A stretch of 64,000 bases of DNA from an uncultured Rikenellaceae bacterium (GTDB lineage: Bacteria > Bacteroidota > Bacteroidia > Bacteroidales > VadinHA17). Shown piece by piece: positions 40,307 through 64,000 of this stretch. The stretch covers positions 596,015 to 660,014 of the forward strand of contig CAZWHC010000001.1 in the NCBI GenBank assembly GCA_964633505.1, in the 5' to 3' direction. Within the stretch, counting starts at the first letter, position 1. Each line of letters starts with the position of its first letter. The position numbers were made by a program, and so were the translations under genes. The notes below the pieces were generated by a model, which did not search any database, was not told the DNA's origin, and saw nothing but the letters and a program-made list of their open reading frames with translations.

Positions 40307-40347
40307 GATATCACATTTTTAAATCTAAGAAACTGTTTACAATATTC

Positions 40348-42373: not shown

Positions 42374-42433
42374 TTCTCTTTCAAATTTATTAAAAATGAA
42401 TCTTATAATACTAAAGAACTTACTTATTGTTAA

Positions 42434-42757: not shown

Positions 42758-42789
42758 TTTGTTATATGATGAAAGTAGAACAAGATTTA

Positions 42790-42906
42790 TAAATATTTAA
42801 TCCATTTCATTGCATGGTTGATAGACCATAAAACATGGCAATCCTGAATAGGTAGTATAACGGACCACAGTCCATGTAATCGAGCTGTTTGATCAAATTC
42901 GTACAT
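42790..42906 (-). pseudogene. frameshifted remnant of a C39-ABC transporter 5' end
   Basis: The minus strand reads 'MYEF' and then, in the +1 frame, 'KQLDYMDCGPLYYLFRIAMFYG'. Compare 'MPEFPLFRQLDSMDCGPSCLRMVAKYYG' of 34803..37169. Confidence 0.65.
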
Positions 42907-44502: not shown

Positions 44503-44640
44503 GGCGTTTACCTCCTTTCTGTTATAGAAAGGTCCAGGCCATTAGCGCAGGGCAAGGGGCGAAGGGCGTAGGACATGATCGTAATTTGGGTTGTTCCGCT
44601 CCCAGCCCCAAGCTCCCTGCTCCCTGCTTTTAAGCTGACC
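44503..44640 (-). promoter_or_regulatory. conserved structured 5' leader element, copy 3 (partly diverged)
   Basis: Hairpin 1 is identical to copy 2 (ACCTCCTTTCTGTTATAGAAAGGTCC). The second hairpin is replaced by GC-rich words (GCAGGGCAAGGGG...CCCCAAGCTCCCTGC). Confidence 0.5.
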
Positions 44641-44700
44641 TTCTCTTTCAAATTTATTAGAAATGAATTCATTAATACTAAAGAATTTATTTATTGTTAA

Positions 44701-46326
44701 TTAATTAACAACCTCTGCTTTTATACTTCTTTCCTCTTTTTCCTTAAAAATCTCCTTGAAATACCTTAGATCATCAATCTCATATTGAGCCGGGAGTTTG
44801 TAACCGTTAATGAAAAAAGTCGGTGTGCCCATTACATTACACTCCTTAAAAAGTCTTCCGTTTTCTTTATTAATTTCAGCTGAAATATCATCAACTTCAG
44901 GAATACAAAGGCCTTCTGTGATCTTTGTCCTGGAATAGGGATCCGCGTTAAACCATTGCTCCAGCAGTTTTATTGATTCCAATTCTCTACCTTGCCTGTT
45001 ATTGTTAAAAAGTGTAGCGAGCATTTTGTTGTCGGATGTTACAAGAAGAAGATTTACAAGTATATCTTCATTTTCATTGAGCATGCTAAGGATTTTCTCA
45101 AAAGCCCTTGCACAATGTGAACAGTGCAGACTGAGAAATGCTGTTATCCTGATCGAAGCATCCCTGTTACCGAAAATCAGACTGCTCTCCGATAATGGAA
45201 TTTCATAGTGAGGCTGATTCATCAGAAGCATCCTGAGAATGTCAGGATTCTTCTTAAACCCGAGATATTTATAATAATGCATTTCACCCGACATTTGCTC
45301 CCTCCGGAATAATATATACAGGGTATATATTATTGTTATTACAAGCAAAGTAAGTACAAGCCTTGTAACAGAATCAAAAGCAAAGGTCAGCTGTGATAAC
45401 TGAGGTAACAATAAAATGAATTCTATAATCAGGATAAGTTGAACACCAAGACACATTGGACACCACTTATTCAGAACAACTCCCTGGTAATAAATTGAGA
45501 AGAGGGGATAGGGTACTGAAAGGGAGGCAAGTATTGCCATCAAAGAAAGACCTTCTCTCCCAGGGGATTGTAAAATAAATAATAAACCTACTGTAAAATA
45601 TATAAATCCGACGTCGGCCCATCCGAACCACCCGAATACCTTTGATGCTTTATCATGAAGAACTGTATTGCAGTTTGTTGCCTTGTTCAGATGACAAAGC
45701 TTGTCAGTAATGGAAAGATGAACTTCAAATTCGTGCAGGATCAGCAGAACAGAAAGTACAATGCCGGCAATTTTTGTAAAAACCAGCGGCAGGATTACCT
45801 TATTGTAAATAATCCCGCCTACGGCAAAATTATTGTAATACAGAGAAATGATAAAAATCAAAACAGCAATTAAAGCCAGAGGCATTACTGATTTATTTAT
45901 CAGTTCATTCTTTATTTTGGTCTGATAATCCTTTTCTCCTGATCGCTGATCCGGGTTAAGCAGTATTACTGCGCCGGAACAGCTCTCAAGAAACTCTTTC
46001 CTGACGGTTTTTCTTTTTTCATTGTATGATGTAAAATATGTAAACTGCTCCTTCCCCGTCTCGGTTACAAATCCTATCATGCCGCCGCCTCTGCTGAAAT
46101 GGACGATATACGGCGCTTGAAGATCCTCCAGTTCTTTTAATTCATACCTGAGAGGATAGTTTTCAATTTTCCATTCATTGAGGGTATCGCAGATACTTTT
46201 AAAAGACGGGTAATCAGGATGTGATTTAAGCGCTTCCTTTACGGTACCTTTTACGACATGTAATCCATAATGTTTTACGGCACGTTGAATGATGCCGACA
46301 GTATTATCTTCCCTGGCCCGTTTCAT
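44701..46326 (-). CDS. C39-like domain / vitamin K epoxide reductase (VKOR) / thioredoxin-fold fusion protein
   Basis: 541 aa. The N-terminal ~130 aa are C39-like but lack the catalytic Cys. The TM core has loop Cys 'KLCHLNKATNC' and the membrane CxxC 'WCPMC'. The C-terminal Trx/DsbA-like domain has CxxC 'HCSHC'. Confidence 0.75.
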   Translation of the reverse strand: MKRAREDNTVGIIQRAVKHYGLHVVKGTVKEALKSHPDYPSFKSICDTLNEWKIENYPLRYELKELEDLQAPYIVHFSRGGGMIGFVTETGKEQFTYFTSYNEKRKTVRKEFLESCSGAVILLNPDQRSGEKDYQTKIKNELINKSVMPLALIAVLIFIISLYYNNFAVGGIIYNKVILPLVFTKIAGIVLSVLLILHEFEVHLSITDKLCHLNKATNCNTVLHDKASKVFGWFGWADVGFIYFTVGLLFILQSPGREGLSLMAILASLSVPYPLFSIYYQGVVLNKWCPMCLGVQLILIIEFILLLPQLSQLTFAFDSVTRLVLTLLVITIIYTLYILFRREQMSGEMHYYKYLGFKKNPDILRMLLMNQPHYEIPLSESSLIFGNRDASIRITAFLSLHCSHCARAFEKILSMLNENEDILVNLLLVTSDNKMLATLFNNNRQGRELESIKLLEQWFNADPYSRTKITEGLCIPEVDDISAEINKENGRLFKECNVMGTPTFFINGYKLPAQYEIDDLRYFKEIFKEKEERSIKAEVVN

Positions 46327-49510: not shown

Positions 49511-49616
49511 GTCAGTCCCGTTAATTTAAAATTCTTTAAAAACCACAGATCAGACATTATTTCAAATAAAGTTCAACAATTGTATTGATATAATTGCAGG
49601 AAAAAGTCAGAAAAAA

Positions 49617-49676
49617 GTTGCCAGAAGTTGCCAGATATTGCCAGAAGCTGCCAGAAGTTGACAGAAGTAGACACCG
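49617..49676. promoter_or_regulatory. six tandem 10-bp units (GTTGCCAGAA-like) between the HTH gene and the biosynthetic operon
   Basis: gttgccagaa/gttgccagat/attgccagaa/gctgccagaa/gttgacagaa/gtagacaccg. The same array recurs at 59890-59949. Confidence 0.5.
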
Positions 49677-49692
49677 TCCTTTTTTTGAACGC

Positions 49693-49923
49693 TTATTTCA
49701 GGTGTTTCGGTATGTCAAATGCTCTATAAATAATTTTAAGATGATAGGGATCGATCAATCCGTTTGGAATATCAAGTCCGGCCTTTTTGATCCATCTGTT
49801 AAGGGTTCGTAAAGAAATTCCATATTCATCAGCTACTACATTTCTGTACTTGGGTTCCAGAATAAGATCATCAATTTTGGGATTATTGTTCATTGCCATA
49901 AAATTTAAAAGACCTTCACCCAA
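49693..49923 (-). CDS. small HTH DNA-binding protein (DUF4248-like?)
   Basis: 76 aa, with a probable start at 'MAMNNN'. The HTH candidate is 'VADEYGISLRTLNRWIKKAG'. It sits at the head of the cluster. Confidence 0.5.
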   Translation of the reverse strand: MGEGLLNFMAMNNNPKIDDLILEPKYRNVVADEYGISLRTLNRWIKKAGLDIPNGLIDPYHLKIIYRAFDIPKHLK

Positions 49924-50059: not shown

Positions 50060-50735
50060 GATCACGAAAGGAATTATAAATGCAAAGAGCGGGGAGGGGA
50101 GAGCAGGGGGCAAGAATCCGCTCAGGGCGCAGGGCGCAGACTTTGCAAGACGTAGCTTTAGCGAAGGCTTGGCACAGGGGAAGAGGCGGAGAGAAGAGCA
50201 AAGAGACGTGAGACGTGAGGAGTGAGGTGTCAGGAGTCAGGAATGCTGTGTCAGTTTCGTTTCTCTGCGTGACTCTGCGAAGAAATCTGCGTAACTCTGC
50301 GAGAAATATTTTTTATTTCAGAGTTCCAGGGTTTCAGAGTTCCAGGGTTATGCTGATTTTTAGGACCAGCACCCAATTTTACTACCGTTGCTTTTCTTCG
50401 GAGTCCGAAGCTTTTGCGAAGGATTCGGCGTAGGCTTAGGGTAGGGGGCAAGATATGAGATTTGAGTAGTGAAGTGGAGATGGGGAGATGGGGTGATGGG
50501 AGATCCGTCTTTAATTCGTGCATCCGTGGCGAAAAAAAGATGTGAGTAGTGAGTAGTGAGTAGTGAGGAAAGAAGAATGAGGAGTCAGTTTTCAGGTGTC
50601 AGGAATGAGGTGTGAGGGGTCAGGTGTCATGGAGAAATGTGGGTTAATACAGTACATTGAACATTGAACATTTAACCTTGAACATTTAACCTTGAACCTA
50701 AATAACCAGCACCCAGCAACCAGCACCTGGCACCT
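50060..50735. repeat. mosaic word-repeat region
   Basis: Contains the rc copy of the 22441-22530 block at 50452-50575. The CTGCGTAACTCTGCG, CAGAGTTCCAGGG, GAATCCGAAGC..GAAGGATTC, GTGTCAGG, TGAACATT and CCAGCACC words recur elsewhere. Confidence 0.85.
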
Positions 50736-50739
50736 ATAT

Positions 50740-51564
50740 TTATACAAATGAAAGTGGAATTAAAAATCTGACTCTGACCGGTTTCCCTCGCTGAAGACCG
50801 GGAGACCATTTTGGCGATTCAGAAATTATCCTTACAGCTTCATTATCCAGCAATGGATCCACTCCTTTAACTATAGAAATATCATTTACCGAACCGTCCT
50901 CTTCGATTATGAAAGTAAGGATAACTTTTCCCTTAATTTTTTTATCTATCGCTTCCTGAGGAAAAGTAATCCTCTTTTGGACCCAGTCTCTGAATTTATT
51001 AAGGTCTCCTCCCTTAAAAGTTGGCATCACCTCTACAATAAAAAGTGGCTCCTCGTTTCCGGTCCCATTACCCCCGGGTAGCAGGTAGTTACCCGAACCT
51101 GACCGGAATTCATCAACTACATCGTTCTCTTGTGATGCCAGAGCTTCGTCTGTAGTGATTTGTGTTTGTTCAGCAGGGGTAATTGTATCCACAACCACTG
51201 GCGGAACATATTCAATAGATTCCGCTGTTTTCTCAATCTCAGGCGCCGGAGGGGCTGGAGGAACATAAATTTCCTCAGCAGGAGGCTCAAGATTTTCCAT
51301 TCTCACCTGTACAAACCTGTTTCCGACCGTTAAAATTCTTTCAGATTTAGGTCTTGTCAGGAAGGGGACAACTGTCAGTGAGGTTCCTAATAAAGATGAT
51401 AAAATCACCCCGGCAAGCAGGGCACTATAGTACTTCTTACGCAAATAATAAGCGCCGTAGTCACGATTACGGTGCTCGAATACGATATCATCGAAATCAG
51501 TGATTCTGTAAGAATAATTCCCTGCATTAAGTTTAGAATGTTTGTCTTTTCTTTTTGTTTTCAC
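50740..51564 (-). CDS. TonB-family energy transducer
   Basis: 274 aa with an N-terminal TM, the Pro-rich spacer 'VPPAPPAPE' and the TonB C-terminal domain 'VEVMPTFKGGDLNKFRDWV...GKPVRVRFLIPLSF'. Confidence 0.8.
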   Translation of the reverse strand: MKTKRKDKHSKLNAGNYSYRITDFDDIVFEHRNRDYGAYYLRKKYYSALLAGVILSSLLGTSLTVVPFLTRPKSERILTVGNRFVQVRMENLEPPAEEIYVPPAPPAPEIEKTAESIEYVPPVVVDTITPAEQTQITTDEALASQENDVVDEFRSGSGNYLLPGGNGTGNEEPLFIVEVMPTFKGGDLNKFRDWVQKRITFPQEAIDKKIKGKVILTFIIEEDGSVNDISIVKGVDPLLDNEAVRIISESPKWSPGLQRGKPVRVRFLIPLSFV

Positions 51565-51779
51565 ATTTCATTTTTTCATTTTTCAAAAGATTCAGATGTC
51601 CAACTGTATCAACTAAAGATAATCTGTCAGGGATGTTACATAAAAGAAAGAACAGGTAGCTTTTTATTTTATATTACAAGAAATGAAGCAAAAAACAAAT
51701 TTCAACAAGAAAAACATCAATTAAAACACTAAGTTAATAACTGTAAGGTAGACATGTATAAACTTCTGCAAAATTTAAA

Positions 51780-52240
51780 ATAATACCAAGGGAGGAAGTT
51801 TTGAACTCCCCCCTTTCTGTCAGGAAAAGGTCCGGACCACTGGCCCAGGGCGAGGGGCGGAGGTCAGGCTTCGTAAGCCGTAGCCTTCTTCGGAATCCGA
51901 AGCATTTGCGAAGGATTCGGCGAAGGCTTGGGGCGGGAAGCAGAGAGGAGTGCAAAGATACGGGAGATATGAGATATGAGATTTGAGTAGTGAGTAGTGA
52001 GGAAAGAAGAATGAGGAGTCAGGTGTCAGGTGTCAGGAATGTGGATTTTTGATTTCTCTGCGTAACTCTGCGATCCCGAAGCATCGGGACTGCGAAAGTC
52101 TGCGAGATAGGTTTTTGTGTTTCAACGGTACAATGTTTCAGGGTTTTACTGTTTTTAGGACAAGCACCCAGTTTTGCTACAGTATTTCTTCGGAAACTGA
52201 AGCTTTAATGATGGGATTCAGTGAGGATTAGCCCCGGCTT
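51780..52240. repeat. mosaic word-repeat region, including a degenerate leader-element copy and a ~190-bp diverged copy of 50255-50445
   Basis: 51808-51860 resembles hairpin 1 plus GGTCCGG of the leader element. 52045-52235 parallels 50255-50445 block by block. Confidence 0.75.
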
Positions 52241-52301
52241 TTGTTACCTCGATCTATGTTAAGGTCTAATTATCAAATATGGAGTAAATTACATTTACAA
52301 G

Positions 52302-53510
52302 TTATTGATTAACAATCATCAAGACAGGATTTGAAGTCTCAGTTATTGAATTCTTTAGTGCCGTCAGTTTTTCAACAGTGGTTTTGTCCAGATTGTTAAA
52401 GAATTCCGGATCTATACTTTTCAGGATTTCATACATCTTATATGCTTCTATATATCCGACCAGGACTCTGTCGTTAAAAACTGACCGTGGCCAGAACTCT
52501 GCAAGTCCAAAATAGTCATCAATAAATCCATTGCTTTTTAACCTCATTAATTCTCTTGAACGTTTGTTATAGATCCAAAGAATCTTTTTAGGTGAAATCC
52601 CTGAGATAGTGGTTAAATACAGATAACTTTGGTCTTCCAGAATGTTATAAATCCATAGCTTTTCTTCGTATTTGGAATAATCCTCCTTAGATTTTATCTG
52701 GATATCGATATCCATTTTTAAATTACCAAAGTTAAAAATGCAATAAGGTCTTTTTACTAGATTACTTAAATAATACATTGTGTCAATTCCATATTCCATA
52801 AAATGAAAATCACCTTTATAAACATACAGTGGGGTAACAGGATTTCCAAATCTGCCAAGTTTGTACTCCAGGTCAGGTGAATAGACTATCCTGAGGATAA
52901 TATTCCCTTCAAAATCAGACAAAAGCCAACTATAAGATTTAATGCCCTTTTGGTTCCCCAGATTTATTATATGGAACATAAAACGATTTAATGAATCAGA
53001 CTCGAACTGAACTGATTGAGCCTTAAATTTGAAGGATTTAATATAATTACCCCTGAAATTAAAAACCAGCATTTCATCTGAATTTGCTGAATAGATATAT
53101 ACAAATTCATTCCGGTCATTAATTGAGAAATCAGCTACGCTGATATATTCCTCGGGACCTCTTCCACTTTTTCCAATCTGTCTGATAAATTTACCTCGCC
53201 TGTCAAACTGCAGAAGCTTCCTGACATCACTAACAAAAATAAACGAATCTGAAAGTTCAACCTTAACCACCTCGTCGAGATAAGATTCATTAGTTGTTTC
53301 TAATGGAATATACTCAATCTTTTTAGTGATGGTGCTCACTGGAGGATTAACGACATTGTTTACAGATCTGGAAATATCGACCAAATATGGTGTAAAATCC
53401 GGATTTCTCCCATCCTCGGATTTTACTTTCTTTTTAAAGAATATAAGGAGACAAAAAAGAATTACAACTGTGATAAAAGAGATGAATATGAGTGATTTCC
53501 TTTTATCCAT
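52302..53510 (-). CDS. membrane-anchored 6-bladed beta-propeller family protein (paralog 6)
   Basis: N-terminal TM. Motifs 'IEYIPLET' and 'GRGPEEY' with tail 'ETSNPVLMIVNQ'. Confidence 0.7.
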   Translation of the reverse strand: MDKRKSLIFISFITVVILFCLLIFFKKKVKSEDGRNPDFTPYLVDISRSVNNVVNPPVSTITKKIEYIPLETTNESYLDEVVKVELSDSFIFVSDVRKLLQFDRRGKFIRQIGKSGRGPEEYISVADFSINDRNEFVYIYSANSDEMLVFNFRGNYIKSFKFKAQSVQFESDSLNRFMFHIINLGNQKGIKSYSWLLSDFEGNIILRIVYSPDLEYKLGRFGNPVTPLYVYKGDFHFMEYGIDTMYYLSNLVKRPYCIFNFGNLKMDIDIQIKSKEDYSKYEEKLWIYNILEDQSYLYLTTISGISPKKILWIYNKRSRELMRLKSNGFIDDYFGLAEFWPRSVFNDRVLVGYIEAYKMYEILKSIDPEFFNNLDKTTVEKLTALKNSITETSNPVLMIVNQ

Positions 53511-53566
53511 TATATTATAGCTTTGAATTTGTCAAGACATTCTATTTTTCCGAAGTATCAAACATC

Positions 53567-54868
53567 TTATTTATATTTTCCCTTACTTTTAAAGGTGACA
53601 AACATTAATACCGGGTTATCCAGAGGATTTATGCCGGAAGCAATATCTTCAAGCTTTTTTCTGCCGGCCGGGTTCCTGGCCCTGGCTTTCCTGAAATCAT
53701 CGCCGGCCACATGATCTTTTAAATCCATGGCTTCAACAGCCATCACCATAACGGAATCATTTACCATTTTCTGAGGGAAAAATCTTGGTCCGCAATCAAT
53801 ATCATTAAATATGCCAGTAGTATTTAACTTATTATCAGTGCTTTCTGGTTTAAAGTAACTAAATTCCCCTGAATCCTTTTGGAATAACCCAAGCATATAT
53901 GTTGTTGTATACCACGACTCTCCACCAGGAGTTTCTTTTGGAGTGAGTTGTCTGGCCGGAAAACGGTTCCCAAAAAAGCATTTAATTAACAGGATATCAT
54001 CCGTTTCAAAGATATCTTCAACAGAGATATAATTCCAGAGTCCTGAACCTCCCAATCTCTCTGCTCTTACGGAAAGAGGCATTTTATATTCACCCAAATT
54101 AAAGGCATATTTTGGAATTAAGCTATCCTCCTCACTAATTGTGAATAAAGTATCATTAAAGTATTGCTTGAAGTGCATTTTCCCATTATAACTATACATG
54201 TAGGATTTGCGTTCAAAAATCGAACCCGGACCATTTCTATTAAAAATGTCATAATTTTTCCAGGCAAACAGAATATGCCCCATTTTATTGATGACAATTG
54301 CCTTGTTTGGTTCCTTCCCGCTGGAGTTTGGGACCGGTACAATAAAAAGAGAATCAAATACATTTGCCCAATTTCTATACCCGTCATCATTATTTCCTGA
54401 AATCCTGAAAATGTCAGAATACTTCCTGATGAAATTACCCTTAAAATCGTACTCCGACAAATCACGTAAAGCACCCTGAACGTAAATTGATTGATGATCT
54501 GAAAAACCTGCTTTTATGCAAAAAAGATACTCCCCCGGACCATTGCCTTTTCGTCCGATAATACTTATAAGTTTCCCATTATTGTTATATAGCAGGCAGG
54601 TATTCAGATTATATATCAGAATCAGGCTGTCCCGAAAATCAAAGTTACTGTATGAGCTGAAAGAAATATAATCCTTTGATTGTAAAGGGACGTACGATAT
54701 ATCATCTGCAAACTGACTTAACTTATATTCTGCCAGATTATCAATATTTGCCCCGATGTCAATAAGAATGCTCTTTTCCTCACCGGATTGTCTATGATTG
54801 CACCCACAAAAGAGCAATGATAATATTATTTCGGGTTTTATGAATCTGTAAGTCATCCGGTAAATCAA
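53567..54868 (-). CDS. lipoprotein, 6-bladed beta-propeller family (paralog 7)
   Basis: Lipobox 'LFCGC'. Motifs 'ISYVPLQS' and 'GNGPGEY' with tail 'LDNPVLMFVTFK'. Confidence 0.7.
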   Translation of the reverse strand: MIYRMTYRFIKPEIILSLLFCGCNHRQSGEEKSILIDIGANIDNLAEYKLSQFADDISYVPLQSKDYISFSSYSNFDFRDSLILIYNLNTCLLYNNNGKLISIIGRKGNGPGEYLFCIKAGFSDHQSIYVQGALRDLSEYDFKGNFIRKYSDIFRISGNNDDGYRNWANVFDSLFIVPVPNSSGKEPNKAIVINKMGHILFAWKNYDIFNRNGPGSIFERKSYMYSYNGKMHFKQYFNDTLFTISEEDSLIPKYAFNLGEYKMPLSVRAERLGGSGLWNYISVEDIFETDDILLIKCFFGNRFPARQLTPKETPGGESWYTTTYMLGLFQKDSGEFSYFKPESTDNKLNTTGIFNDIDCGPRFFPQKMVNDSVMVMAVEAMDLKDHVAGDDFRKARARNPAGRKKLEDIASGINPLDNPVLMFVTFKSKGKYK

Positions 54869-54897
54869 TTTTCGATTGATTCAAACTTAAGAACTTA

Positions 54898-54966
54898 TTA
54901 ATTCAGCATTTCAGGCCAGTCTTTCGCCTTGATCTGCAATTTATTAAGTTTTTTTATAACAACCAT
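54898..54966 (-). pseudogene. decayed GG-leader precursor remnant
   Basis: The minus strand reads 'MVVIKKLNKLQIKAKDWPEMLN*'. 'KKLNKLQI' is identical to the start of the precursor 1 leader, with ATA at the position of the original ATG. There is no GG motif and no core. Confidence 0.55.
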
Positions 54967-55185
54967 TTTTTTAGTCAGCAAATCATTCATGATTCCCCTT
55001 ATTTATTGCATACAGGAGCTCCAAAAGGGTCGAGTCACATCCAGCTCAGTACATTCAAATAGATGACGTCATCCCGGATACGGTTCCTGCCAATTCGGGA
55101 TCTTTTCCCGAACCACCGCATATTCGAAAAGCAGATTCTGCCAGATGCAGACCTTCAAGCCTTTACGCCCTAACGCTCATCATTA

Positions 55186-56373
55186 TTATTCCTTGAACCT
55201 TACCAGCACCAAAACCGGATTATCCGTTTCTTCAAGACTGTCAGCCAGCCTGACAAGCTCCGCCTTACCGCCGGGATCACGGGGATTACTGTTCCTGAAA
55301 GCCTCCGAGTTGACCCAGTTCTTAAGGTTTATGGTCTCAACCCACGAAACAAGTGTATTGTCATCCCAGGTACCCTTTGGCCAGATACAGGGGCCGCCGT
55401 CAAGATCATTCAGAAGCTCCTTCTCCGGATCGAAAAATGCCCTGAAATCACCATCCTTCGACCCAATGAAGGCAAGGCCTTCCATCTTGCCGTTACGCGG
55501 ACTGATAAACTCATAATAGACCTTATCCCCAAATTCAAACAGGTTAGCCGGATGGAGAAAGCTCTTCATGATTATATCGACAGTACCGGTAGTTCTCGCT
55601 TCAGGTGTAAGGCGAAGGTTTCCGACATCGATAACCATGTAAGGCTCAAAATCCCCGTTCTTCCAGGAGTATACGGTATCGCAATAGATCTCTTTCTTCC
55701 TTAGCTGATTATCAAAACTGTAAAAAAGATTTTCCCCTGTATAAAAGACACCGGGATCAGTCCTGGTCCAGGGATATTTATTTGGGAAATTCCTTATTAT
55801 GGTACCCATTGTATCCACAAGGATGTAACTGTTCTCAATAGCACCCATATGGTTCGGATAGTAACACAGTATCCCTTCACTTGTGAGTCTGAAATTCATG
55901 GCAGACGACAGAGGAGTTCTGAAAGTCCTTACAAGATTGCCTTCCGGCGAGAAAACAAAGAACTTCTGCTGAAATCCGTCGGCCAGGTAAATTGATCCGT
56001 CATTCTTGTCGATGTCAACATCATGGGCGACCGTAAATTCGTCAGGACCCCTTCCGGCTTTTCCTATTTTGGTAACGAAAGTACCATCGTGACGGAACAT
56101 AAAGATATTGGCAAAATACACGGTCAGGAAATAGTCTTTCCCAACCAGGATTTTGTTTATTCTGGATATAACACTCTGCTCTGTGGTCCCAAGAGGAATG
56201 TATTCAATATCAACTGCGCCCAGATCCGACAGGTTCAGGGTTCCCTGCGAGGGCAACTCCTTCAGGTCAAAGGCAATAAGCCTGTCTTCCCTGACCGGAC
56301 CGGAACTTTTGCAGCTTAGAAGGATCGCCGGTAATAAAAAGATCCAGATATGAATTTTAAGGAATGTTTTCAT
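55186..56373 (-). CDS. lipoprotein, 6-bladed beta-propeller family (paralog 8)
   Basis: Lipobox 'LLSC'. Motifs 'IEYIPLGT' and 'GRGPDEF' with tail 'ETDNPVLVLVRFKE'. Confidence 0.7.
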   Translation of the reverse strand: MKTFLKIHIWIFLLPAILLSCKSSGPVREDRLIAFDLKELPSQGTLNLSDLGAVDIEYIPLGTTEQSVISRINKILVGKDYFLTVYFANIFMFRHDGTFVTKIGKAGRGPDEFTVAHDVDIDKNDGSIYLADGFQQKFFVFSPEGNLVRTFRTPLSSAMNFRLTSEGILCYYPNHMGAIENSYILVDTMGTIIRNFPNKYPWTRTDPGVFYTGENLFYSFDNQLRKKEIYCDTVYSWKNGDFEPYMVIDVGNLRLTPEARTTGTVDIIMKSFLHPANLFEFGDKVYYEFISPRNGKMEGLAFIGSKDGDFRAFFDPEKELLNDLDGGPCIWPKGTWDDNTLVSWVETINLKNWVNSEAFRNSNPRDPGGKAELVRLADSLEETDNPVLVLVRFKE

Positions 56374-56586
56374 TGTTCATAATTATTTATCCCCAGGTTG
56401 TTAGTTGATTGTCTACTAAGATAGGCATTTAATATAAACTGGCAGTGAGTTTACACTGTAATTTTAAAAAAATCTTCAGAACAATAGGTTAATACTTCTT
56501 CAAACCAATTCCTGCTCCTATCAAGAGGCATCCTAAGGTTTGACCTGCGCGACACTTCTCCACCTTTACCTTCTCTGAATCCTTCA

Positions 56587-56943
56587 CTAAAGCCTCAGTT
56601 TCCGAAGAAAGCTGCGAAGTGCAAAGCTTGCACGACCTCTTTCTCTCCGTTTCTTAATCCTGTACACCACAACGAAGTGTCTCTGGTTCCGTTCCGCCAC
56701 GCACGGCAGTGGCACCTTGTCGCAAAGTTGTTCCCAGACAAGGCGGTAGCCGCGGGTACGGAAACCAATGCTTTCGGCGGCATCGGTGATACCAAGCATT
56801 GAGACGCCTGATTTTGTTATGAATGATCTGGAACGGAGTGATTGTAATGTGTAAGATTTCCCATAATACCTGGCTATCATACGAAGACTGGATGGGCCGC
56901 AATCCATAGAATCCAGCTGCTTAAAATATGGGAATGCAGGCAT
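56587..56943 (-). pseudogene. truncated C39-ABC transporter paralog (C39 N-terminal ~100 aa only)
   Basis: The first 100 aa are roughly 85% identical by eye to 34803..37169. After 'VVVYRIKKRR' the ORF runs into word-repeat sequence and stops. Confidence 0.8.
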
Positions 56944-56947
56944 ATTA

Positions 56948-58129
56948 TTACTTTTTCAGACTTACCAGGACAAGAACCGGATTATCCGTTTCTTTCAGGC
57001 TGTTTGCAAGTCTTTCAAGCTCCTGCTTCTTTTCGGGGTAAAGAGGTTTTGATTTCCTGAAAACCTCAGATGCAACATGGTTTTTAAGCTGTAGGGCATC
57101 AATCCAGGCAACAAGAGTATTATTATCTTTTATTGTTTTTGGCCAGATATTGGGACCTCCATTCAAATCATTAATAATTCCCTTTTTCGGATTAATTACA
57201 AAAATCAGATTTTGAATTCTTGACCCAATCATTCCAAACAGATTGCCATTCATAAGAAACTCATAATAAATGTAATCACCAAATTCAAATAAGTTCAATT
57301 GTTGAAAGTAGTTTTCCGCTATTTTGTCTGGACTTAAATTAGAACGTACCTCCGGAGTAATCAGTCTTTTTCCCTGATAAATTACAGCATGTGGATTAAA
57401 TGATTGTTTTTCAAAACTATATATGGTGTCAGAGGAAATTTCCTTTTTGTACAACCGATTATTATACTTATAAAATATATTTTCATTAATAAATACTAAA
57501 TAACGTCCTTTGGGTGCTTTAAACGGATACTTATTTGAGTAATTTTTAAGAATGTGACCTGCAGTGTCTAACAAATTATAGCTAGAGGTAATATTTGCAA
57601 ATGAGTTTATGCTGTAGCACAAAATTCCATCACCTGTAATTCTAAAGTTCGTTGTATTTAACGGGCATGGGAAAGTTCTAATAAACTTACCATTTTCATT
57701 AAAGACAAAGAATTTACGCTGCCAGCCTGAGACCAGGTAAATTCTTCCGTTCTTATCATCAATATCAAAATCATGAAGTACCGTAAACTCATGCGGACCT
57801 CTGCCTGGTTTCCCTATTTGTGTCTTGAAATGTCCATTATTGTCGAATTTTAGAAGTGTTGTATAATCCTGAATAAGAATATAGTTGTTACCAAATCTGA
57901 TACCAGTAATTCTTTGAAGTGGATTTTTATCACTTGTTTCTAACGGAAGAATTTCAATATCCCTGAATCCTAATTCAGAAAGTTTTATATCAACAACTTT
58001 TAGTTGCTCTTTCATGTCGAAAGCCGTCAAATTCTTAGTATTCTGACAATCTGTTCTTTGACTCACAATCAGATATAATACTATTAACAATATGATTTCT
58101 ATTTTACTCATTTGTATTCTTGATTTCAT
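56948..58129 (-). CDS. secreted 6-bladed beta-propeller family protein (paralog 9)
   Basis: Motifs 'IEILPLET' and 'GRGPHEF' with tail 'ETDNPVLVLVSLKK'. Its stop is 4 bp before the C39 fragment start. Confidence 0.7.
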   Translation of the reverse strand: MKSRIQMSKIEIILLIVLYLIVSQRTDCQNTKNLTAFDMKEQLKVVDIKLSELGFRDIEILPLETSDKNPLQRITGIRFGNNYILIQDYTTLLKFDNNGHFKTQIGKPGRGPHEFTVLHDFDIDDKNGRIYLVSGWQRKFFVFNENGKFIRTFPCPLNTTNFRITGDGILCYSINSFANITSSYNLLDTAGHILKNYSNKYPFKAPKGRYLVFINENIFYKYNNRLYKKEISSDTIYSFEKQSFNPHAVIYQGKRLITPEVRSNLSPDKIAENYFQQLNLFEFGDYIYYEFLMNGNLFGMIGSRIQNLIFVINPKKGIINDLNGGPNIWPKTIKDNNTLVAWIDALQLKNHVASEVFRKSKPLYPEKKQELERLANSLKETDNPVLVLVSLKK

Positions 58130-58206
58130 TATTGTTACAGGTTAGGATAATATTAGTATTTTGAGTTAAGAAGTTGTTGAAATTCAACTTATAGATTTTA
58201 TTACTA

Positions 58207-59367
58207 TTATTTCAGATTTACAAGAACCAAAACCGGATTATCAGTTTCTTTGAGACTATTTGCCAACTTTTCAAGCTTTTTCTTCTTTTCGGGGTATTTG
58301 GGTTCGGATTTTTTGAAATTTACGCCGGAAACACACGCTTTCAGCTTATATGGGTCAATTAAATCAATTAAGTATTCTCTGCCATGATCTGCTATAAAGG
58401 TTTTTGGAAAGAATTTCAATCCAGCATCAAGGTCATTCCAGATACATCCTGTATCATCAGAACTCCAGTATGATAAAAATGTATTTTGAAGATTTTTATC
58501 TATAATAACTAAACCATTTTTCTCTTTATAAAATAAATATTGAATCATCAGATATTTTTTTGATTCAAAAATCTGATTGATCATAAAGTATTTATGCAAT
58601 TGTTTAATTGGATTATCAATATATGTTTTTGGCAATCTGAATTCTCCTTGTTTAAACAGGAAGTTGGGTCTTAAGGTAAAATCAGGGTAAAAAGTATATA
58701 CAGTATCAATAAAAGGATTCCAGAAGTTTAATTTGTCGTCAAATAAATAGGTTCCGCCACCATTCAGAAAATTGCTCTTGAATGCAGGCAACGTTCTTTC
58801 TTTCTTTTTGATCAGGTTGCCAAGTGTATCAAGGATCATCCATTCAAATTTATTATCATCATCATACTGAAGTTGATAGGATAGGAAAAGTCTGGAGTTA
58901 AATACTTCAATTTTATCCAGTGAACCACCATACGCTTTTAGGGAAAATTCATTTCGGAAAGTGCCTGTAATATTAAAAACCTTTATGCCATTGGGTTCAT
59001 TTGAAACATATATTGTTCCTGTCCTTTTATCTATTGCAAACGACCTGCCATTAAAATATTCTCCCGGACCTCTGCCTTTTTTCCCAATCTTCATTAAGAA
59101 TTGCCCGTTTATATCAAATTCAAGGATCCCTTCATGCACATCATAAATAAATATTTTATTATTACAGATTTTAGGATTATAATTACTATTAATTTGTGAA
59201 AGAGGAAAACTGCATTTGAGGGGAATATATACTATGTCATCAGCAATGTCAGATAACATTATCTCATTTTCTAAAAGAGAAGAAGGATCTAATTCAAAAA
59301 GTATTTTGTCACTATGCCGGCAGGATATCAAATAAAATAATAGAAAAACGAGCAAATTCTTCTTCAT
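58207..59367 (-). CDS. lipoprotein, 6-bladed beta-propeller family (paralog 10)
   Basis: Lipobox 'LISC'. Motifs 'IVYIPLKC' and 'GRGPGEY' with tail 'ETDNPVLVLVNLK'. Confidence 0.7.
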   Translation of the reverse strand: MKKNLLVFLLFYLISCRHSDKILFELDPSSLLENEIMLSDIADDIVYIPLKCSFPLSQINSNYNPKICNNKIFIYDVHEGILEFDINGQFLMKIGKKGRGPGEYFNGRSFAIDKRTGTIYVSNEPNGIKVFNITGTFRNEFSLKAYGGSLDKIEVFNSRLFLSYQLQYDDDNKFEWMILDTLGNLIKKKERTLPAFKSNFLNGGGTYLFDDKLNFWNPFIDTVYTFYPDFTLRPNFLFKQGEFRLPKTYIDNPIKQLHKYFMINQIFESKKYLMIQYLFYKEKNGLVIIDKNLQNTFLSYWSSDDTGCIWNDLDAGLKFFPKTFIADHGREYLIDLIDPYKLKACVSGVNFKKSEPKYPEKKKKLEKLANSLKETDNPVLVLVNLK

Positions 59368-59635
59368 GGCTTTTATCAGTACATCAAAAGTATTTTAGAG
59401 ACTGAATCAAAAGTGGCCATTGTGATCCGCGTATCCTTTTAATCATTTGTGAATCCGATTGTTATCTTTGTGGATCACAAGATTTAACATCAATTACAAA
59501 AGTAAACAAAAGATGGTGCCAAGATACTCCAAGGGCTTATTATACAGTCTCATTTTAAAATAATCAACAACTCCAAAGGCCAGCCCCACCTCCACCAGGT
59601 AATTCGCACGAACTAATGCAATCTTCTTTAGATGT

Positions 59636-59700
59636 CGCTACACCTCCTTTCTTTTACGAAAGGTCCGGGCAGAGGGCATGTAAGGAACACAGACAAAGCT
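59636..59700 (-). promoter_or_regulatory. conserved leader element, orphan copy
   Basis: ACCTCCTTTC-TTTTAC-GAAAGGTCCGGGCAGA...TCTGCCC, with both hairpins retained. No intact precursor lies downstream. Confidence 0.5.
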
Positions 59701-59800
59701 TTCTGCCCTTTCTTTGTTTTTACTATTTTTCATTTATCATCTGCATGTCTAAAGTTTATAACCGTGAACATTATTATGCTTTCATAGTATAAGTTGAAAA

Positions 59801-60110
59801 TTTTTCACAGATCAAAATTGTCCTGATATTAAAGTTCAACAATTATATTGATATGATTGCAGGAAAAATCCGGGAATAAGTTGACAGAAGTTGCCAGATA
59901 TTGTCAGAAGCTGCCAGAAGTTGACAGAAGTGGACACCGTCCTCTTTTTGAGCGATGATTTCAGGCGCTTTGGGATTTTAAGATCCGCTCAGACTTTGCA
60001 AGCCGTGGCCTTCTTTGGAATCCGAAGCTTTTGTGAAGGATTCGGCATAGGCTTAGGGCAGAGGGGAGGAGAGAAAGATCTGGCCCATGACGGATGAGCT
60101 TTCAGCCCCC
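59801..60110. repeat. duplicate of the 49541-49700 region plus mosaic word repeats
   Basis: About 165 bp are roughly 85% identical to the region upstream of the LanC-like operon, including the 10-bp array and a remnant of the HTH gene 3' end. GAATCCGAAGC/GAAGGATTC words follow. Confidence 0.8.
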
Positions 60111-60250
60111 TTATTGGAAAAACCAAAAATGTCGGGGATTGACCTCTGGTTAAGTCTTTTAATTTTCGAACATGAGAATAATGGAGTAATTCAATAAAAA
60201 TAAGAAAATATCGCAAAATTACGATTAATATCCTAAAAAAAACGTTATTT

Positions 60251-61402
60251 TTGCGATTACGTTCCTTTATTCCAGGTATAATGATCAGAAGAGTACTTGA
60301 GAAAGATGTTGTGTCCAGAATAGCCACAGGTAAGGCTATCATAATTACCGGCGCTCGTCAGACCGGTAAAACAACCCTTTTATCAGGGCTCCTGAAAGAA
60401 AGGGAAGGAACATTATGGCTCGATGCTGATGAACCAGATGTACGGGCCTTGTTCGAGAATCCAACTTCCGACAGACTAAAAGCGGTTTTTGCCGGGAAGA
60501 AGATTCTGATCATAGATGAAGCCCAGCGGATAGAAAATATCGGGATGCGTCTTAAACTGATTACAGATCATCTGAAAGATATTCAGTTGGTTGCAACAGG
60601 GTCATCTTCCTTCGAACTGTCAAACAAGATCAATGAGCCTCTTACGGGCCGGAAATGGGAATTTCAATTGTTCCCGATTTCATTTGAGGAAATGGTAAAT
60701 CATACGAGCCTGCTTGAAGAAATCAGGTTAATGCCGCACCGTTTAATTTTTGGATATTATCCTGAAATTGTCACTAACGCGGGATCAGAGAAAGATATTC
60801 TTAAACAGCTCACAGACAGTTACCTGTACAAAGACATACTAATGTGGGAAAGAATAAACAAACCTGACAAGCTGGTCAGGTTGTTACAGTCACTTGCTTT
60901 ACAGATAGGTAACGAAGTATCATACAATGAACTGGCAAATAACCTTGGGATTGATAACCAGACTGTTGAAAAGTACATACAGTTACTTGAACAGACTTTT
61001 GTGATTTTCAGACTGGGCGCATTTAGCAGAAATCTCCGCAAAGAACTGAAACGCTCAAGAAAAATATATTTTTATGATAATGGAATCCGTAATTCACTCA
61101 TTGCTAACTTTAGTCCTCCGGAACTTCGCGGTGATACCGGAGCATTGTGGGAGAATTTTTTCATCTCGGAACGAATAAAATTTCTGAAGAATAATAATAT
61201 CTGGGCGAATACTTACTTCTGGAGAACTCAGGACCAACAGGAAATTGACTTTATCGAAGAACGGGACGGAATGCTCCACGCATTGGAGATCAAATGGAAC
61301 CCAAAATCAAAGGCGAGGCTTTCCAGGACATTTTCCTCGGAATACAAAACATCATTTGATGTTATTACTCCCGATAATTTTGACAGGTTTCTAACATTAT
61401 GA
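60251..61402 (+). CDS. AAA-type ATPase with DUF4143-like C-terminal domain
   Basis: Walker A 'GARQTGKTT'. Walker B 'ILIIDEAQR'. The likely start is the internal 'MIRRVLEKD' at 60281. Confidence 0.7.
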   Translation: MRLRSFIPGIMIRRVLEKDVVSRIATGKAIIITGARQTGKTTLLSGLLKEREGTLWLDADEPDVRALFENPTSDRLKAVFAGKKILIIDEAQRIENIGMRLKLITDHLKDIQLVATGSSSFELSNKINEPLTGRKWEFQLFPISFEEMVNHTSLLEEIRLMPHRLIFGYYPEIVTNAGSEKDILKQLTDSYLYKDILMWERINKPDKLVRLLQSLALQIGNEVSYNELANNLGIDNQTVEKYIQLLEQTFVIFRLGAFSRNLRKELKRSRKIYFYDNGIRNSLIANFSPPELRGDTGALWENFFISERIKFLKNNNIWANTYFWRTQDQQEIDFIEERDGMLHALEIKWNPKSKARLSRTFSSEYKTSFDVITPDNFDRFLTL

Positions 61403-61491
61403 CTGAAAACAGGGTGTTGTGTTCATAGCCGTGTTTTGAAGTATAATGTGTTTTACAAAAGTTGCACAAACCAAAAGTACCTTCGGCTCTG

Positions 61492-62589
61492 TTATTTCAT
61501 CAGAACAATAACCGGATTGTCCTCCTCCTTCAGTTCGGAAACTAAATTCTTAAGTTTATTATCTGCAATTTCATCTTTATATTTCTTCAGGCTGCCGGCC
61601 TGTAAAAATGTTACCATAGTGCCATTTTCATCACTCCACCTGGGCCAGATCAGATATTGATCTTTATTTATTGCATAACTCTTTCCGGTCTTTTTATTTA
61701 TTACATATCTTTCACTTTCTCCCTTATAGAATATTGTAACAAAAACATAACTGCCATTTTCACAGACATCTTCAAGATACCCGTAACCTGAAGACTTGTC
61801 CTGGTACTTGCCAATATTCTCAAGCAAGTCAAGAGGGAACTTTGCACTGCCAAAGTCAAAATAATAACTGACTGAAAGGGTTTTATCACGGGGATCAAAC
61901 CTGTAGATCGTATCATTGAACTGCTGGTGAAAAATCAATCCATTATCGAGCTTCTGAAAATTTTTGATGTCATAAACCTGGAAAAAATCCTGACTGTTAT
62001 ATGAAACATTGTTTTTAAGACATGTGGAGGAGTCATTTTCATCTATAATTTTCAGCATGCATGGCTCCTTACCGGAATAGTTCAGAGGATAAACAACATA
62101 CATGTTATTGATTACTTCAAGACGTTTGCTGAAACCGTCAATATCTTTAGTACCAATATACCTGCCCGAGAAATCATAAATGTTGATTTTTTTAAGATCA
62201 CAGATATAAACCTGTCCCGGAGCCTCATCAACGGCAACATCAACAATAATACCGTATTCTGCCGGGCCCCTGCCTTTGGAGCCTATCTTCCTGATGTATT
62301 TCCCGTTTGTTTCAAACTGGTAAAACGAATCCCCTGATAAAACAAAAATGAAATCCGATGTCAGAATGACTTTATGAACACCGGCGATAAGACAACCGGG
62401 ATTGGTCTCCAACGGAATATATGTAAACTGTTCCTTAAACGAGAAAAGCTCTTTTGAACTTCTTAATGTAGTAATGTCATAACAGATCTGTTCAGATTTC
62501 AAATGTGAGGTACATGAAAGAAATTCTGATGCCAGCAGCAACAAAATGCAATTTGCAATCAGAAGATGTTTGAAAGAACAGAAATCCAT
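61492..62589 (-). CDS. lipoprotein, 6-bladed beta-propeller family (paralog 11)
   Basis: The start is taken at 'MDFCSFKHLLIANCILLLLASEFLSC' (lipobox). The track ORF extends to 62679. Motifs 'FTYIPLET' and 'GRGPAEY' with tail 'EEDNPVIVLMK'. Confidence 0.65.
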   Translation of the reverse strand: MDFCSFKHLLIANCILLLLASEFLSCTSHLKSEQICYDITTLRSSKELFSFKEQFTYIPLETNPGCLIAGVHKVILTSDFIFVLSGDSFYQFETNGKYIRKIGSKGRGPAEYGIIVDVAVDEAPGQVYICDLKKINIYDFSGRYIGTKDIDGFSKRLEVINNMYVVYPLNYSGKEPCMLKIIDENDSSTCLKNNVSYNSQDFFQVYDIKNFQKLDNGLIFHQQFNDTIYRFDPRDKTLSVSYYFDFGSAKFPLDLLENIGKYQDKSSGYGYLEDVCENGSYVFVTIFYKGESERYVINKKTGKSYAINKDQYLIWPRWSDENGTMVTFLQAGSLKKYKDEIADNKLKNLVSELKEEDNPVIVLMK

Positions 62590-62814
62590 GATCAGAATTT
62601 TCTCTTTGGCTGCCTTTTCCGGAATGAATAAATATCCCGGATTTGAATGCCTGCGAATTTTTCCGTTAAGCGGGTTCATTATTTTTTGTTTTCGAACTAT
62701 TAAAAGTAGTCTTTTTGGTACAAATTCAAAACCGGCACGGGTACAGGCGATCCCGAGTTGCTTCGCTTTCGGGACTACTTATCCTCCTTTCGTCGGATAC
62801 GTAGCTTGCACGTG

Positions 62815-63966
62815 CTATAAGTCAGGAAATTCCTCATTCAGAAATGCTTTCCTGAACCATATCTCAAATGCAGGATCGAGGAAAAAATATGTTCTGCCCG
62901 ATTCTCCGATGACATCGTTGTTTATGAGCGTCATTTTATTCTTGCTTACATTCCGGGGGGTGCCGAGACGGAATTCATTCATCACCCGTGAGGAAGTAAG
63001 CTGGCTTTCTCCTGCCGCGACTGCTTTCAGAAGATTGATCTGTGTCGGGCTCATGTTTTCAGCCTGGTTCTTGTAAAATGGCATATTGGCATTCAGAAGT
63101 TCCTTCAATGAAGTAATGATATCAGTTTTTGTAACGCTTCTGCCTGTCAGGTTCCATGTATAATGAGCAAGCTGCTGGATATACCAGGGATGACACTGCA
63201 TCAGATCGGCAATCAACGCTGATTCCTCCCTTGTTATGCTTTTGCCTGTATTTTTAAAGCCTTCACAGATAAAGGCAATCCAGCTGTCCCTTTCAATTTT
63301 CGGAAGCATAATTATCTCACCAAACCTGTAAAACGGTAAGGAAGGGGTGTTGAATATATCTGTCATCATATGGCACTGACTGCCATAAATGCAGTATGTT
63401 ACAAGTTTCTGCCTCTGCCATATGGATCTCATCCTTTTTTCAAGCTCAATGTAGCCTCCGAATCCTGCTATAACCTGGAATTCGTCAAGACATACAATCA
63501 TTTTTATCTTTTTCTCCTGTGCTATCTTCTCCGGCAGGCTGAGGATCTCGTCGCTGTTCTTTTTCAGTTCCTCCCAGTCGAAACTTATGCTGAAACTGCT
63601 TACAGGATCCATGCTTACCTGAATCCTGGGGATGATGTTCCTGAATATTTTTCTGGATAACTCTATCCATTCCTGCCATTTTGACGAAGAGGCTTTTAAA
63701 ATTTCACCGGCAAATTTTTCCAGGAATTCTTCTGCGCTGTTAACAGTAAACAGGTCGATCATCGCAATCCTGATGTTTTTATGTTCCGTGCGGAGAGAGC
63801 CGGTGACAAATTCCACAAGAGATGATTTACCCCACCGCCTCGGAGATATTATAATTGTGTTTGTCCCTCCAAGCATGTTCGACTTTAGCTGTTTTACCTC
63901 CTTTTTCCGGTTTATGAATGAGCGGGAGCTTACCGTGCTCCCATAAATAAACGGTGATGTTTTCAT
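62815..63966 (-). CDS. ATP-binding protein (archaeal-type ATPase/DUF234-like)
   Basis: 383 aa. 'FINRKKEVKQLKSNM...IIISPRRWGKSSL' gives the Walker A site. 'MIVCLDEFQ' gives Walker B. Confidence 0.65.
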   Translation of the reverse strand: MKTSPFIYGSTVSSRSFINRKKEVKQLKSNMLGGTNTIIISPRRWGKSSLVEFVTGSLRTEHKNIRIAMIDLFTVNSAEEFLEKFAGEILKASSSKWQEWIELSRKIFRNIIPRIQVSMDPVSSFSISFDWEELKKNSDEILSLPEKIAQEKKIKMIVCLDEFQVIAGFGGYIELEKRMRSIWQRQKLVTYCIYGSQCHMMTDIFNTPSLPFYRFGEIIMLPKIERDSWIAFICEGFKNTGKSITREESALIADLMQCHPWYIQQLAHYTWNLTGRSVTKTDIITSLKELLNANMPFYKNQAENMSPTQINLLKAVAAGESQLTSSRVMNEFRLGTPRNVSKNKMTLINNDVIGESGRTYFFLDPAFEIWFRKAFLNEEFPDL

Positions 63967-64000
63967 ATTCCTCAGATTTATACCATCAGGTATTATACCA

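Follow-up and report, generated by a model that had tools for sequence, protein, structure and literature searches.

Why would five intact genes be kept side by side in a locus where the neighboring peptide and exporter genes have been reduced to stubs? The question is raised by positions 52,302 to 60,110 of a 64,000-nucleotide stretch of DNA from an uncultured Rikenellaceae bacterium (contig CAZWHC010000001.1; the whole stretch is hereafter termed the window), where five genes for DUF5128 lipoproteins of the β-propeller type stand in a row. They are part of a Bacteroidales peptide gene cluster that occupies the right half of the window on the minus strand and is divided here into locus 1 (approximately 33–50.8 kb) and locus 2 (the 51565–64000 side). 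A preliminary description had taken locus 2 for a decayed copy of all of locus 1, in which the propellers were retained selectively because they confer a benefit on their own, for example immunity to peptides made by neighbors. The comparisons reported here incline us, by a modest preference, toward a different account, in which both loci belong to one regulon, locus 2 being its second transcription unit and not a decaying copy of the whole locus. The array is headed by an old duplicate of the operator and promoter that lacks its own gene for a helix-turn-helix (HTH) protein, followed by the five co-oriented DUF5128 lipoprotein genes; the peptide genes that once stood beside two of the propellers, and a second C39-ATP-binding cassette (C39-ABC) exporter, are now stubs. 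This arrangement suggests that the propellers are useful without peptides of their own.

Locus 1 provides the reference. It begins with the gene for a 76-aa HTH protein (49693–49923), six 10-bp direct repeats and a promoter, followed by genes for a LanC-like protein, two glycosyltransferases (GT2 and GT4) and a C39-like/VKOR/thioredoxin protein. Three modules come next, each consisting of a conserved upstream element, a gene for a Cys-rich peptide with a double-glycine (GG) leader and a DUF5128 propeller gene, and the locus ends with an intact C39-ABC exporter (34803–37169) and a HlyD-type adaptor. It thus contains intact precursors with a double-glycine leader. In the window as a whole there are nine propellers and three peptides.

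Related loci, designated below by L and P numbers, were collected by scanning a genome collection with a degenerate three-unit operator pattern, which mostly returned unrelated genomes, and then by BLAST against the window; four related loci were among the matches listed. The assemblies closest to the cluster are labeled as Bacteroidales or Rikenellaceae metagenome-assembled genomes from bioreactors. Independent contigs confirm the assembly of locus 2, one at 100% identity (L001) and two, from other samples, at 99.3% over positions 52759–58320 (L128 and L129, which agree with each other in gene calls as well).

A second copy of the operator and promoter

Comparison of 51.9–64 kb with 33–50.8 kb by blastn aligned positions 59830–59976 with 49567–49713 at 87.8% identity over 147 bp (E = 3.7e-48), and the homology continues, more weakly, to about 59805; the copy of about 165 bp previously placed at 59801–59970 is thereby borne out and its limits refined. 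The reference segment (49567–49713, minus strand) holds operator/promoter 1 and the end of the intact HTH gene, and heads the LanC-like/GT/GT/VKOR/peptide operon. As the preliminary description had it, six 10-bp direct repeats are included in the copy (59878–59936, minus strand; gene-strand unit approximately CTTCTGGCAA), which we presume to be an HTH binding array and term operator copy 2. Tandem Repeats Finder reports 5.9 copies of the unit here and 5.4 copies at 49615–49668, and the three-unit pattern occurs at only two sites in the window (49618–49664 and 59878–59936), with 0 expected from shuffled sequences. Conservation extends beyond the repeats, over about 40 bp toward the HTH gene and about 50 bp of promoter at the opposite end, and because these flanks are non-repetitive, the match is not an artifact of shared word repeats.

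On the HTH side, the last seven codons of the HTH gene were also correctly recognized at the outset: they read KIPKRLK (59959–59979, minus strand, by alignment with locus 1 and relatives), compared with DIPKHLK* in locus 1, and the stop codon has been lost. In place of the gene body stands a repeat-block element (60011–60065, not assigned to a strand) that is an 89% copy of 50394–50448. On the other side of the repeats, between them and the likely transcription start, lies a conserved segment within the 147-bp block (TTTTTCCTGCAATCATATCAATATAATTGTTGAACTTTA; 59830–59877, minus strand) that has invariant stretches over six aligned copies. Promoters of Bacteroidetes carry the −7 motif TAnnTTTG, and this motif together with the position of the segment points to a putative promoter. 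A scan for sigma-70 promoters and terminators returned 39 where 29 were expected, and such a scan is uninformative for Bacteroidota. The segment is followed by a spacer resembling a transcribed leader (59701–59829, minus strand), which comparison with L059 identifies as specific to promoter copy 2; alignment and blastn found nothing corresponding to it after promoter copy 1.

The orthologue of promoter copy 2 in a different species, L059, matches 59643–59990 at 89% over 349 bp. It shares the truncated HTH tail (its open reading frame ends in ...ADFKIPKRLK) fused to the same repeat-block element, as well as substitutions specific to copy 2. From the HTH tail through the spacer (290 bp) the two sequences are 93% identical, and the spacer itself is 97% identical (125/129), compared with 83% at the synonymous sites of the neighboring TonB gene. 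The operator repeats are nearly invariant over six copies from four genomes and are 91.5% identical to those of L059. There, the promoter copy heads an intact gene for a 67-aa GG-leader peptide, followed by a thioredoxin-like lipoprotein gene; the homology to the window stops inside the leader element at 59643–59700. Because the junction and the HTH truncation are common to L059, where an intact peptide gene follows, promoter copy 2 is old and not decaying; it looks constrained and predates the split between the species. The junction of promoter and leader element, with no enzyme genes between, is ancestral, which argues against simple decay of a whole-locus copy. A second locus intact elsewhere, for which the preliminary description had proposed a search, was found in part: the promoter copy with an intact peptide gene exists in L059, and no enzyme genes separate the two.

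In L059 (496–1948), the slot after the peptide gene is filled by a 408-aa TlpA-like thioredoxin lipoprotein, with no propeller there. Two other relatives, L071 and L029, are orthologues of locus 1 in which one more peptide-propeller module separates the LanC-like gene from the first glycosyltransferase gene. L105 (4108–7080) and L071 (3815–4208) lie 32 kb apart on the same 3.08-Mb contig of the relative AnMBR.bin519; L105 is a recent second copy of an intact HTH gene and operator beside an IS66 element, with no open reading frame of at least 50 aa on the operon strand after the operator within the 0.9 kb at hand.

The same binding-site-like array therefore heads more than one transcription unit, there being two arrays in the window whose unit number and sequence are conserved across genomes. 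An HTH gene followed by five to seven 10-bp repeats recurs in L122 and L124 with different unit sequences. The HTH gene always adjoins the 10-bp array and the unit sequence varies together with that of the HTH protein, a covariation that would fit a protein and its binding site.

Peptide and exporter relics in locus 2

An orphan leader element had been reported downstream of the promoter copy, and it is present: of the four copies of GACCTTTC..GAAAGGAGG in the window, three each precede an intact peptide gene, and the fourth is that at 59643–59665. It belongs to an orphan copy of the peptide-gene upstream element (CTGCCCGGACCTTTC-loop-GAAAGGAGG; 59643–59700, minus strand) of which only the 5′ box is left. 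A conserved element of about 110 nt precedes every GG-leader peptide gene and consists of CTGCCCGGACCTTTC-loop-GAAAGGRGG followed by ATGCGAAGATAAT and CCTGTGAAATGATAAA boxes; its sites are 40412–40435, 42262–42285, 44511–44534 and 59643–59665 in the window, and it is also seen in L059, L071, L122, L124 and L126. It matches no Rfam family, and RNAalifold gave only a short hairpin with almost no covariation, so that no RNA structure is claimed; the element could be a DNA site or an RNA leader.

Next to it lies the 3′ relic of a peptide gene (59564–59638, minus strand, detected by tblastn), without start codon or leader. The frame at 59567–59638 reads ATSKEDCISSCELPGGGGAGLWSC* and represents the last ~22 codons; an in-frame TAA stands directly upstream, and the preceding "KGG" is part of the nucleotide element and not of a leader. 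The preliminary description had compared this remnant, placed at about 59564–59626, with peptide 1. That a peptide-gene relic is present holds, and the likeness to peptide 1 proved weak at the protein level (E = 0.1), with no DNA-level match to any peptide gene including peptide 1. The better match is the C-terminus of the L126 peptide, ALNKADCEDSCKDLGGGLWSC* (tblastn E = 1.9e-4, 54% over 24 residues, both ending at the stop), and this peptide adjoins the closest homolog of propeller 58207. The second peptide relic is a leader stub (54898–54990, minus strand; ..KKLNKLQIKAKDWPEMLN*), in which the ATG has become ATA and neither a GG motif nor a core remains. Positions 54929–54970 are an 86% copy (E = 7e-7) of 40278–40320, the start of peptide 1, ending at a stop after ten leader codons (KKLNKLQIKAKDWPEMLN), in agreement with the decayed leader noticed earlier at 54898–54966. 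Locus 2 accordingly has no intact GG-leader precursor gene, only the leaderless 3′ relic and the 10-codon stub.

The exporter is represented by a truncated C39 peptidase domain of 100 codons followed by 18 unrelated codons (56587–56943, minus strand; Pfam Peptidase_C39, E = 3.3e-24). As had been proposed, it derives from a C39 gene: positions 56644–56943 are 83% identical in protein sequence to residues 1–100 of the locus-1 transporter (E = 1.4e-49). The cut falls where the intact gene has an in-frame block of heptamer repeats. Synonymous divergence (dS) from the locus-1 exporter is 1.16 with a nonsynonymous divergence (dN) of 0.10 (dN/dS, ω, 0.09), and comparison with an independently truncated fragment beside the orthologue of propeller 56948 in L122 gives ω of 0.07. 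The low ω at dS of 1.16 indicates that the fragment is what is left of a second exporter, which stayed functional through almost all of this divergence and was cut recently. Relative to L128 it shows 0 synonymous and 3 nonsynonymous changes. There is no full-length C39 peptidase/ABC exporter in locus 2. In other genomes, too, truncated C39 sequences start directly after propeller genes (L124, 11165–11272 and 12839–12985; L122, 1955–2263 and 3709–3891), and the L122 exporter gene is split by a toxin-antitoxin-like insertion.

Maturation enzymes are another matter. When the LanC-like, GT2, GT4, VKOR and HlyD proteins of locus 1 were compared with 51565–64000 by tblastn, no relic was found (all E > 0.07), and no maturation genes, either radical SAM or LanC-like/GT/VKOR, stand beside the precursor remains. 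The earlier statement that peptide, enzyme and export genes had all decayed thus stands for two peptide relics and one exporter relic, and fails for the enzymes.

These results bear directly on the possibility that a complete locus, with HTH gene, enzymes, peptides, exporter and propellers, was duplicated and that all but the propellers are decaying by mutation, the promoter copy being a relic as well. The promoter, peptide relics and exporter relic do follow the order of locus 1, the exporter had been functional at one time, and the closest homologs of 58207 (60–65% identical) sit in complete loci directly after a VKOR gene and a peptide gene. Against this, enzyme and HlyD relics are lacking in 51565–64000, and homology boundaries at repeat blocks are abrupt, which points to rearrangement and not to decay by point mutation. 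Promoter copy 2 and its junction predate the species split, exceed synonymous sites in conservation and are followed by an intact peptide gene in L059. In addition, the propellers of locus 2 are only 19–51% identical in amino-acid sequence to those of locus 1 and among themselves, and are therefore old paralogues and not recent copies of the locus-1 propellers. We consequently regard duplication and decay of the whole locus as unlikely, and the preliminary description is not sustained on this point.

The propeller genes and their association with peptides

All five propeller genes are intact, as had been stated, with scores of 60–113 bits against a DUF5128 cut-off of 22.9. In the order of transcription on the minus strand, they encode proteins of 386 aa (58207–59367; Pfam E = 5.8e-20), 393 aa (56948–58129; E = 1.7e-32), 395 aa (55186–56373; E = 9.2e-32; also intact in L128 and L129), 429 aa when counted from the ATG of the orthologues (53567–54856; assigned by Pfam, with a center that varies by strain) and 402 aa (52302–53510; E = 3.6e-29), the last of the array. 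The AlphaFold model of 58207–59367 (mean predicted local distance difference test score, 90.9) is a six-bladed propeller. Its best Foldseek match is 4RAA/BF0058, a putative exported protein of B. fragilis (E = 3e-18, TM-scores 0.70/0.75); the other top matches are NHL binding domains and BamB, with no enzyme in the top 50. Across 50 homologs, invariance is limited to Gly, Pro, Asp-Thr and Asn residues, with the lipoprotein Cys conserved almost throughout. These features would fit binding rather than catalysis. PADLOC gave no match for the propellers and NCBIfam only weak NHL-type matches.

The propellers recur with peptide genes. In locus 1, L071/L029, L122, L124 and L126, a leader element, a peptide gene and a propeller gene together make up a unit, and at least seven independent loci, drawn from different genomes, have a propeller gene directly preceded by a peptide gene. 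Propellers of the 58207 clade pair with peptides ending in ..C..SC...G.W.C*, and the relic upstream of 58207 is of the same type. In L124, L126, L071 and L122, homologs of 58207 and 56948 (the L122 orthologue of 56948 among them) come after intact peptide genes, where the window has relics or nothing. Loss of the peptide with retention of the propeller is also recurrent: L131 has a leader relic, decayed leaders or C39 stubs stand beside intact propellers in L131, L124 and L122, and propeller arrays without peptide or enzyme genes adjoin RND pump genes in L133 and the P0014 context, a neighborhood also seen in the window.

Selection on the propellers

The four propellers covered by L128 differ from it by 9 synonymous and 9 nonsynonymous substitutions, a pooled ω of 0.26 that departs from neutrality (binomial P = 0.005), and intergenic DNA has 7 changes in 674 bp, approximately equal to dS. 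The benefit previously proposed for the orphan propellers is thus accompanied by purifying selection, set beside the 0 synonymous and 3 nonsynonymous changes of the C39 fragment. Gene 56948 has 5 synonymous and 2 nonsynonymous changes relative to L128 and dN/dS of 0.14 relative to its L122 orthologue. For 53567, whose orthologues form a series at 99, 85 and 78% identity, dN/dS is 0.20–0.25 (against L128, L130 and L131), and 52302–53510 is identical or nearly so in L128 and L130. No stop codon was found in any covered propeller codon of L128, L130 or L131; neither relaxed selection nor disabling mutations appeared in these population data. Purifying selection is therefore seen after loss of the partner genes (ω of 0.26 and 0.20–0.25, from small counts). 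Values of dN/dS between paralogues within the window are saturated and uninformative.

Exchange of propeller cassettes

Strain comparisons show that the array is a mosaic produced by cassette exchange, in which strains swap both whole genes and central parts of genes, with breakpoints in the conserved gene ends. The 3′-terminal 110 nt of gene 58207 are conserved, and it is within them, at 58320, that the identity between L128 and the window ends; upstream of the equivalent position L128 encodes another propeller (68% to 37178), along with a fragment resembling 40581. A 2.7-kb stretch of L130, from another sample, agrees fully with the window apart from 150 mismatches, all of which lie in 53783–54673 (890 bp, the center of 53567). 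This segment has dS of 0.36 and ω of 0.22 and is flanked on either side by at least 900 bp without a single difference.

The C-terminal 36 residues of the propellers are 60–90% identical across clades that are otherwise approximately 25% identical. Gene conversion at these 3′ ends was considered and rejected, as synonymous sites there are as saturated as elsewhere (proportion of synonymous differences, pS, 0.5–0.8), with the exception of one recombination junction (58207 against L128, pS 0.25). The saturation indicates constraint at the protein level, which also offers targets for recombination. Homology breakpoints elsewhere than in propeller 3′ ends fall at heptamer repeat blocks. These tandem blocks (GGCAGAG, GCTCTGC, GTGAGTA, AGGTGTC, ACATTGA, CCAGCAC and others, 3–7 copies each) fill intergenic DNA, for example at 33081–33346, 34739–34801, 36728–36877, 50123–50727 and 51964–52037, and the ABC exporter, although apparently intact, has one of them in frame within its C39 domain (residues ~100–150).

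A possible role of the propellers

If locus 2 is a second transcription unit of the regulon, the single HTH protein of locus 1 would bind the 10-bp arrays at both sites, and the orphan propellers would then be expressed together with peptide production. The peptide, enzyme and exporter functions would be supplied in trans or lost, so that their duplicates decay, and each propeller would keep its value by recognizing a particular peptide type. Most likely, the propeller would be a periplasmic or outer-membrane lipoprotein that binds and neutralizes, or otherwise guards against, a cognate Cys-rich GG-leader peptide, whether from the own cell or from neighbors, which would make this an array of orphan immunity genes. 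The pairing of each peptide with one propeller, the association of clade with peptide type, persistence of the propellers once the peptide is lost and replacement of the variable core would be best accommodated by a peptide-specific role in binding or protection; as judged from sequence, an immunity role is plausible. We put forward more tentatively, as a possibility short of our preferred expectation, that DUF5128 lipoprotein propellers are peptide-specific protective partners of GG-leader Cys-rich peptides, which sequester the peptide or shield its outer-membrane target, and that the arrays are HTH-controlled libraries of exchangeable protection cassettes, giving resistance to peptides that are no longer made.

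Several observations weigh against this interpretation. The HTH assignment is weak (Pfam HTH_23, E = 0.002, below cut-off; RacA, E = 0.016), and the use of promoter 2 and its co-regulation with locus 1 are predicted from sequence. The pairing of propeller type with peptide type draws on few loci, and peptide 1 is of the ..GVWQC type, yet the propeller after the insertion sequence that follows it belongs to another clade. The population counts are small (18 substitutions), and purifying selection shows that the propellers are useful, not what for. Peptide-less propeller arrays such as that of L133 would also fit a function unrelated to peptides, and our literature searches returned nothing that ties DUF5128 to peptides or immunity. 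Bacteroidetocin producers are moreover reported to be sensitive to their own product and to have no immunity protein (Coyne et al. 2019, PMC6671954).

The propellers might instead be maturation, chaperone or export-accessory factors, possibly enzymes, that serve the three locus-1 peptides in trans, the array being an extension of the biosynthetic cluster. The shared operator would co-regulate them with that cluster, nine propellers would be at hand for three peptides in the window, and NHL-type six-bladed propellers include enzymes. We consider such a role doubtful, and slightly more so than decay of a whole-locus copy, given the extreme sequence diversity with almost no invariant polar residues, structural neighbors that are binding modules and the existence of arrays without peptide or enzyme genes; replacement of the center between strains is, furthermore, more typical of specificity determinants than of enzymes. 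It is improbable that the propellers are a general family of surface lipoproteins unrelated to peptides, whose neighborhood merely reflects a repeat-rich, recombination-prone region. Heptamer blocks at every breakpoint, DUF5128 arrays by RND pump genes without peptide genes, and an insertion sequence and a candidate defense ATPase close by would agree with such a family, but the immediate adjacency of peptide and propeller genes in at least seven independent loci, the recurrence of leader relics before propellers and the correlation of propeller clade with peptide C-terminal type speak against it. Finally, an explanation of the similarity between 59.8 and 49.6 kb by low-complexity repeats alone, or by faulty assembly, as tandem 10-bp units in a repeat-rich region might suggest, is hardly credible in view of the conserved non-repetitive flanks (E = 4e-48), orthologous copies in four other assemblies and the agreement of independent contigs.

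Neighboring genes

Locus 1 is not pristine either. An insertion sequence (DDE transposase, DUF772 domain; 38478–39815) lies between peptide gene 1 and propeller 37178, and a VKOR/thioredoxin pseudogene at 42368–42812, an 81% copy of 44635–45079 with an in-frame stop inside, is the leftover of a tandem duplication of a VKOR-peptide-propeller module. Between the two loci stands a TonB-family gene (50740–51564) flanked by direct copies of repeat blocks (50216–50610 and 51900–52206). In L059 the TonB-family gene stands on the opposite flank of promoter copy 2, a displacement indicative of repeat-mediated rearrangement. Promoter copy 2 is adjoined by an AAA/DUF4143 ATPase gene (60251–61402; PADLOC candidate defense family PDC-S01, E = 1e-164), beyond which lie a sixth propeller on the locus-2 side (61492–62679) and a second ATPase_2 gene (62815–63966). 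In L059, L071, L105 and L131, the cluster is bordered by paralogs of the DUF4143 ATPase gene.

Comparison with known systems

The theme of orphan partner genes in bacteriocin-type loci is already known, so the value of the present case is mainly as a lead on the function of DUF5128. If the protective role is correct, a large Bacteroidota lipoprotein family without an assigned function (Pfam DUF5128, thousands of homologs) would gain a testable one, and a simple regulatory module, the 76-aa HTH protein with its six 10-bp repeats, would join producer and orphan operons. It would also name the "immunity" part of Bacteroidales peptide-antagonism loci that published work has not found (PMC6671954, PMC10352776). 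If this reading is wrong, the region is still a clear case of module turnover in a peptide gene cluster, of local interest only.

Among systems of the Bacteroidota, bacteroidetocin loci resemble the cluster in their Cys-rich GG-leader peptides, thiol oxidoreductase gene and C39-ABC exporter (PMC6671954). They are set apart by gene content, having a protein with five transmembrane segments and no propeller, LanC-like or glycosyltransferase genes; the target of bacteroidetocins is BamA (PMC8546649). Surveys of Bacteroidales peptide clusters have described LanC-like genes without catalytic residues and no recognizable immunity genes (PMC10352776, PMC6671954). The "GG-Bacteroidales" system of NCBIfam (TIGR04149/TIGR04157) is matched by the peptides of locus 1 (peptide 2 scores 29.9 bits with the TIGR04149 leader model, cut-off 25) and by its GT4 enzyme (TIGR04157, E = 7e-86, below the family cut-off). 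That system is defined by radical-SAM maturases, however, of which this cluster has none, and locus 2 is without an intact member of either family. The propellers share the fold of Pfam DUF5128/PDB 4RAA, a comparison that names the fold only.

Orphan toxin/immunity arrays of the contact-dependent inhibition (CDI) and Rhs systems are similar in that divergent cassettes with conserved junctions permit exchange by homologous recombination. Those arrays keep pairs of toxin tip and immunity gene, whereas here only the putative protective gene is kept and its peptide partner is lost. Close parallels in organization are found in the class II bacteriocin loci blp of Streptococcus pneumoniae and pln of Lactobacillus plantarum, which have orphan immunity genes and multi-operon regulons. 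These loci likewise combine GG-leader peptides with C39-ABC export, a partner gene for each peptide and a shared direct-repeat promoter before several operons, and their strains keep partner genes after loss of the peptide or exporter and vary in a cassette-like manner. They differ in that they belong to Gram-positive bacteria and use a LytTR response regulator with two repeats, whereas the present host is a Gram-negative member of the Bacteroidales whose regulator would be the 76-aa HTH protein with six 10-bp repeats. The partner of blp and pln peptides is a small membrane protein; that of the peptides described here is a lipoprotein β-propeller of about 390 aa, for which immunity is putative.

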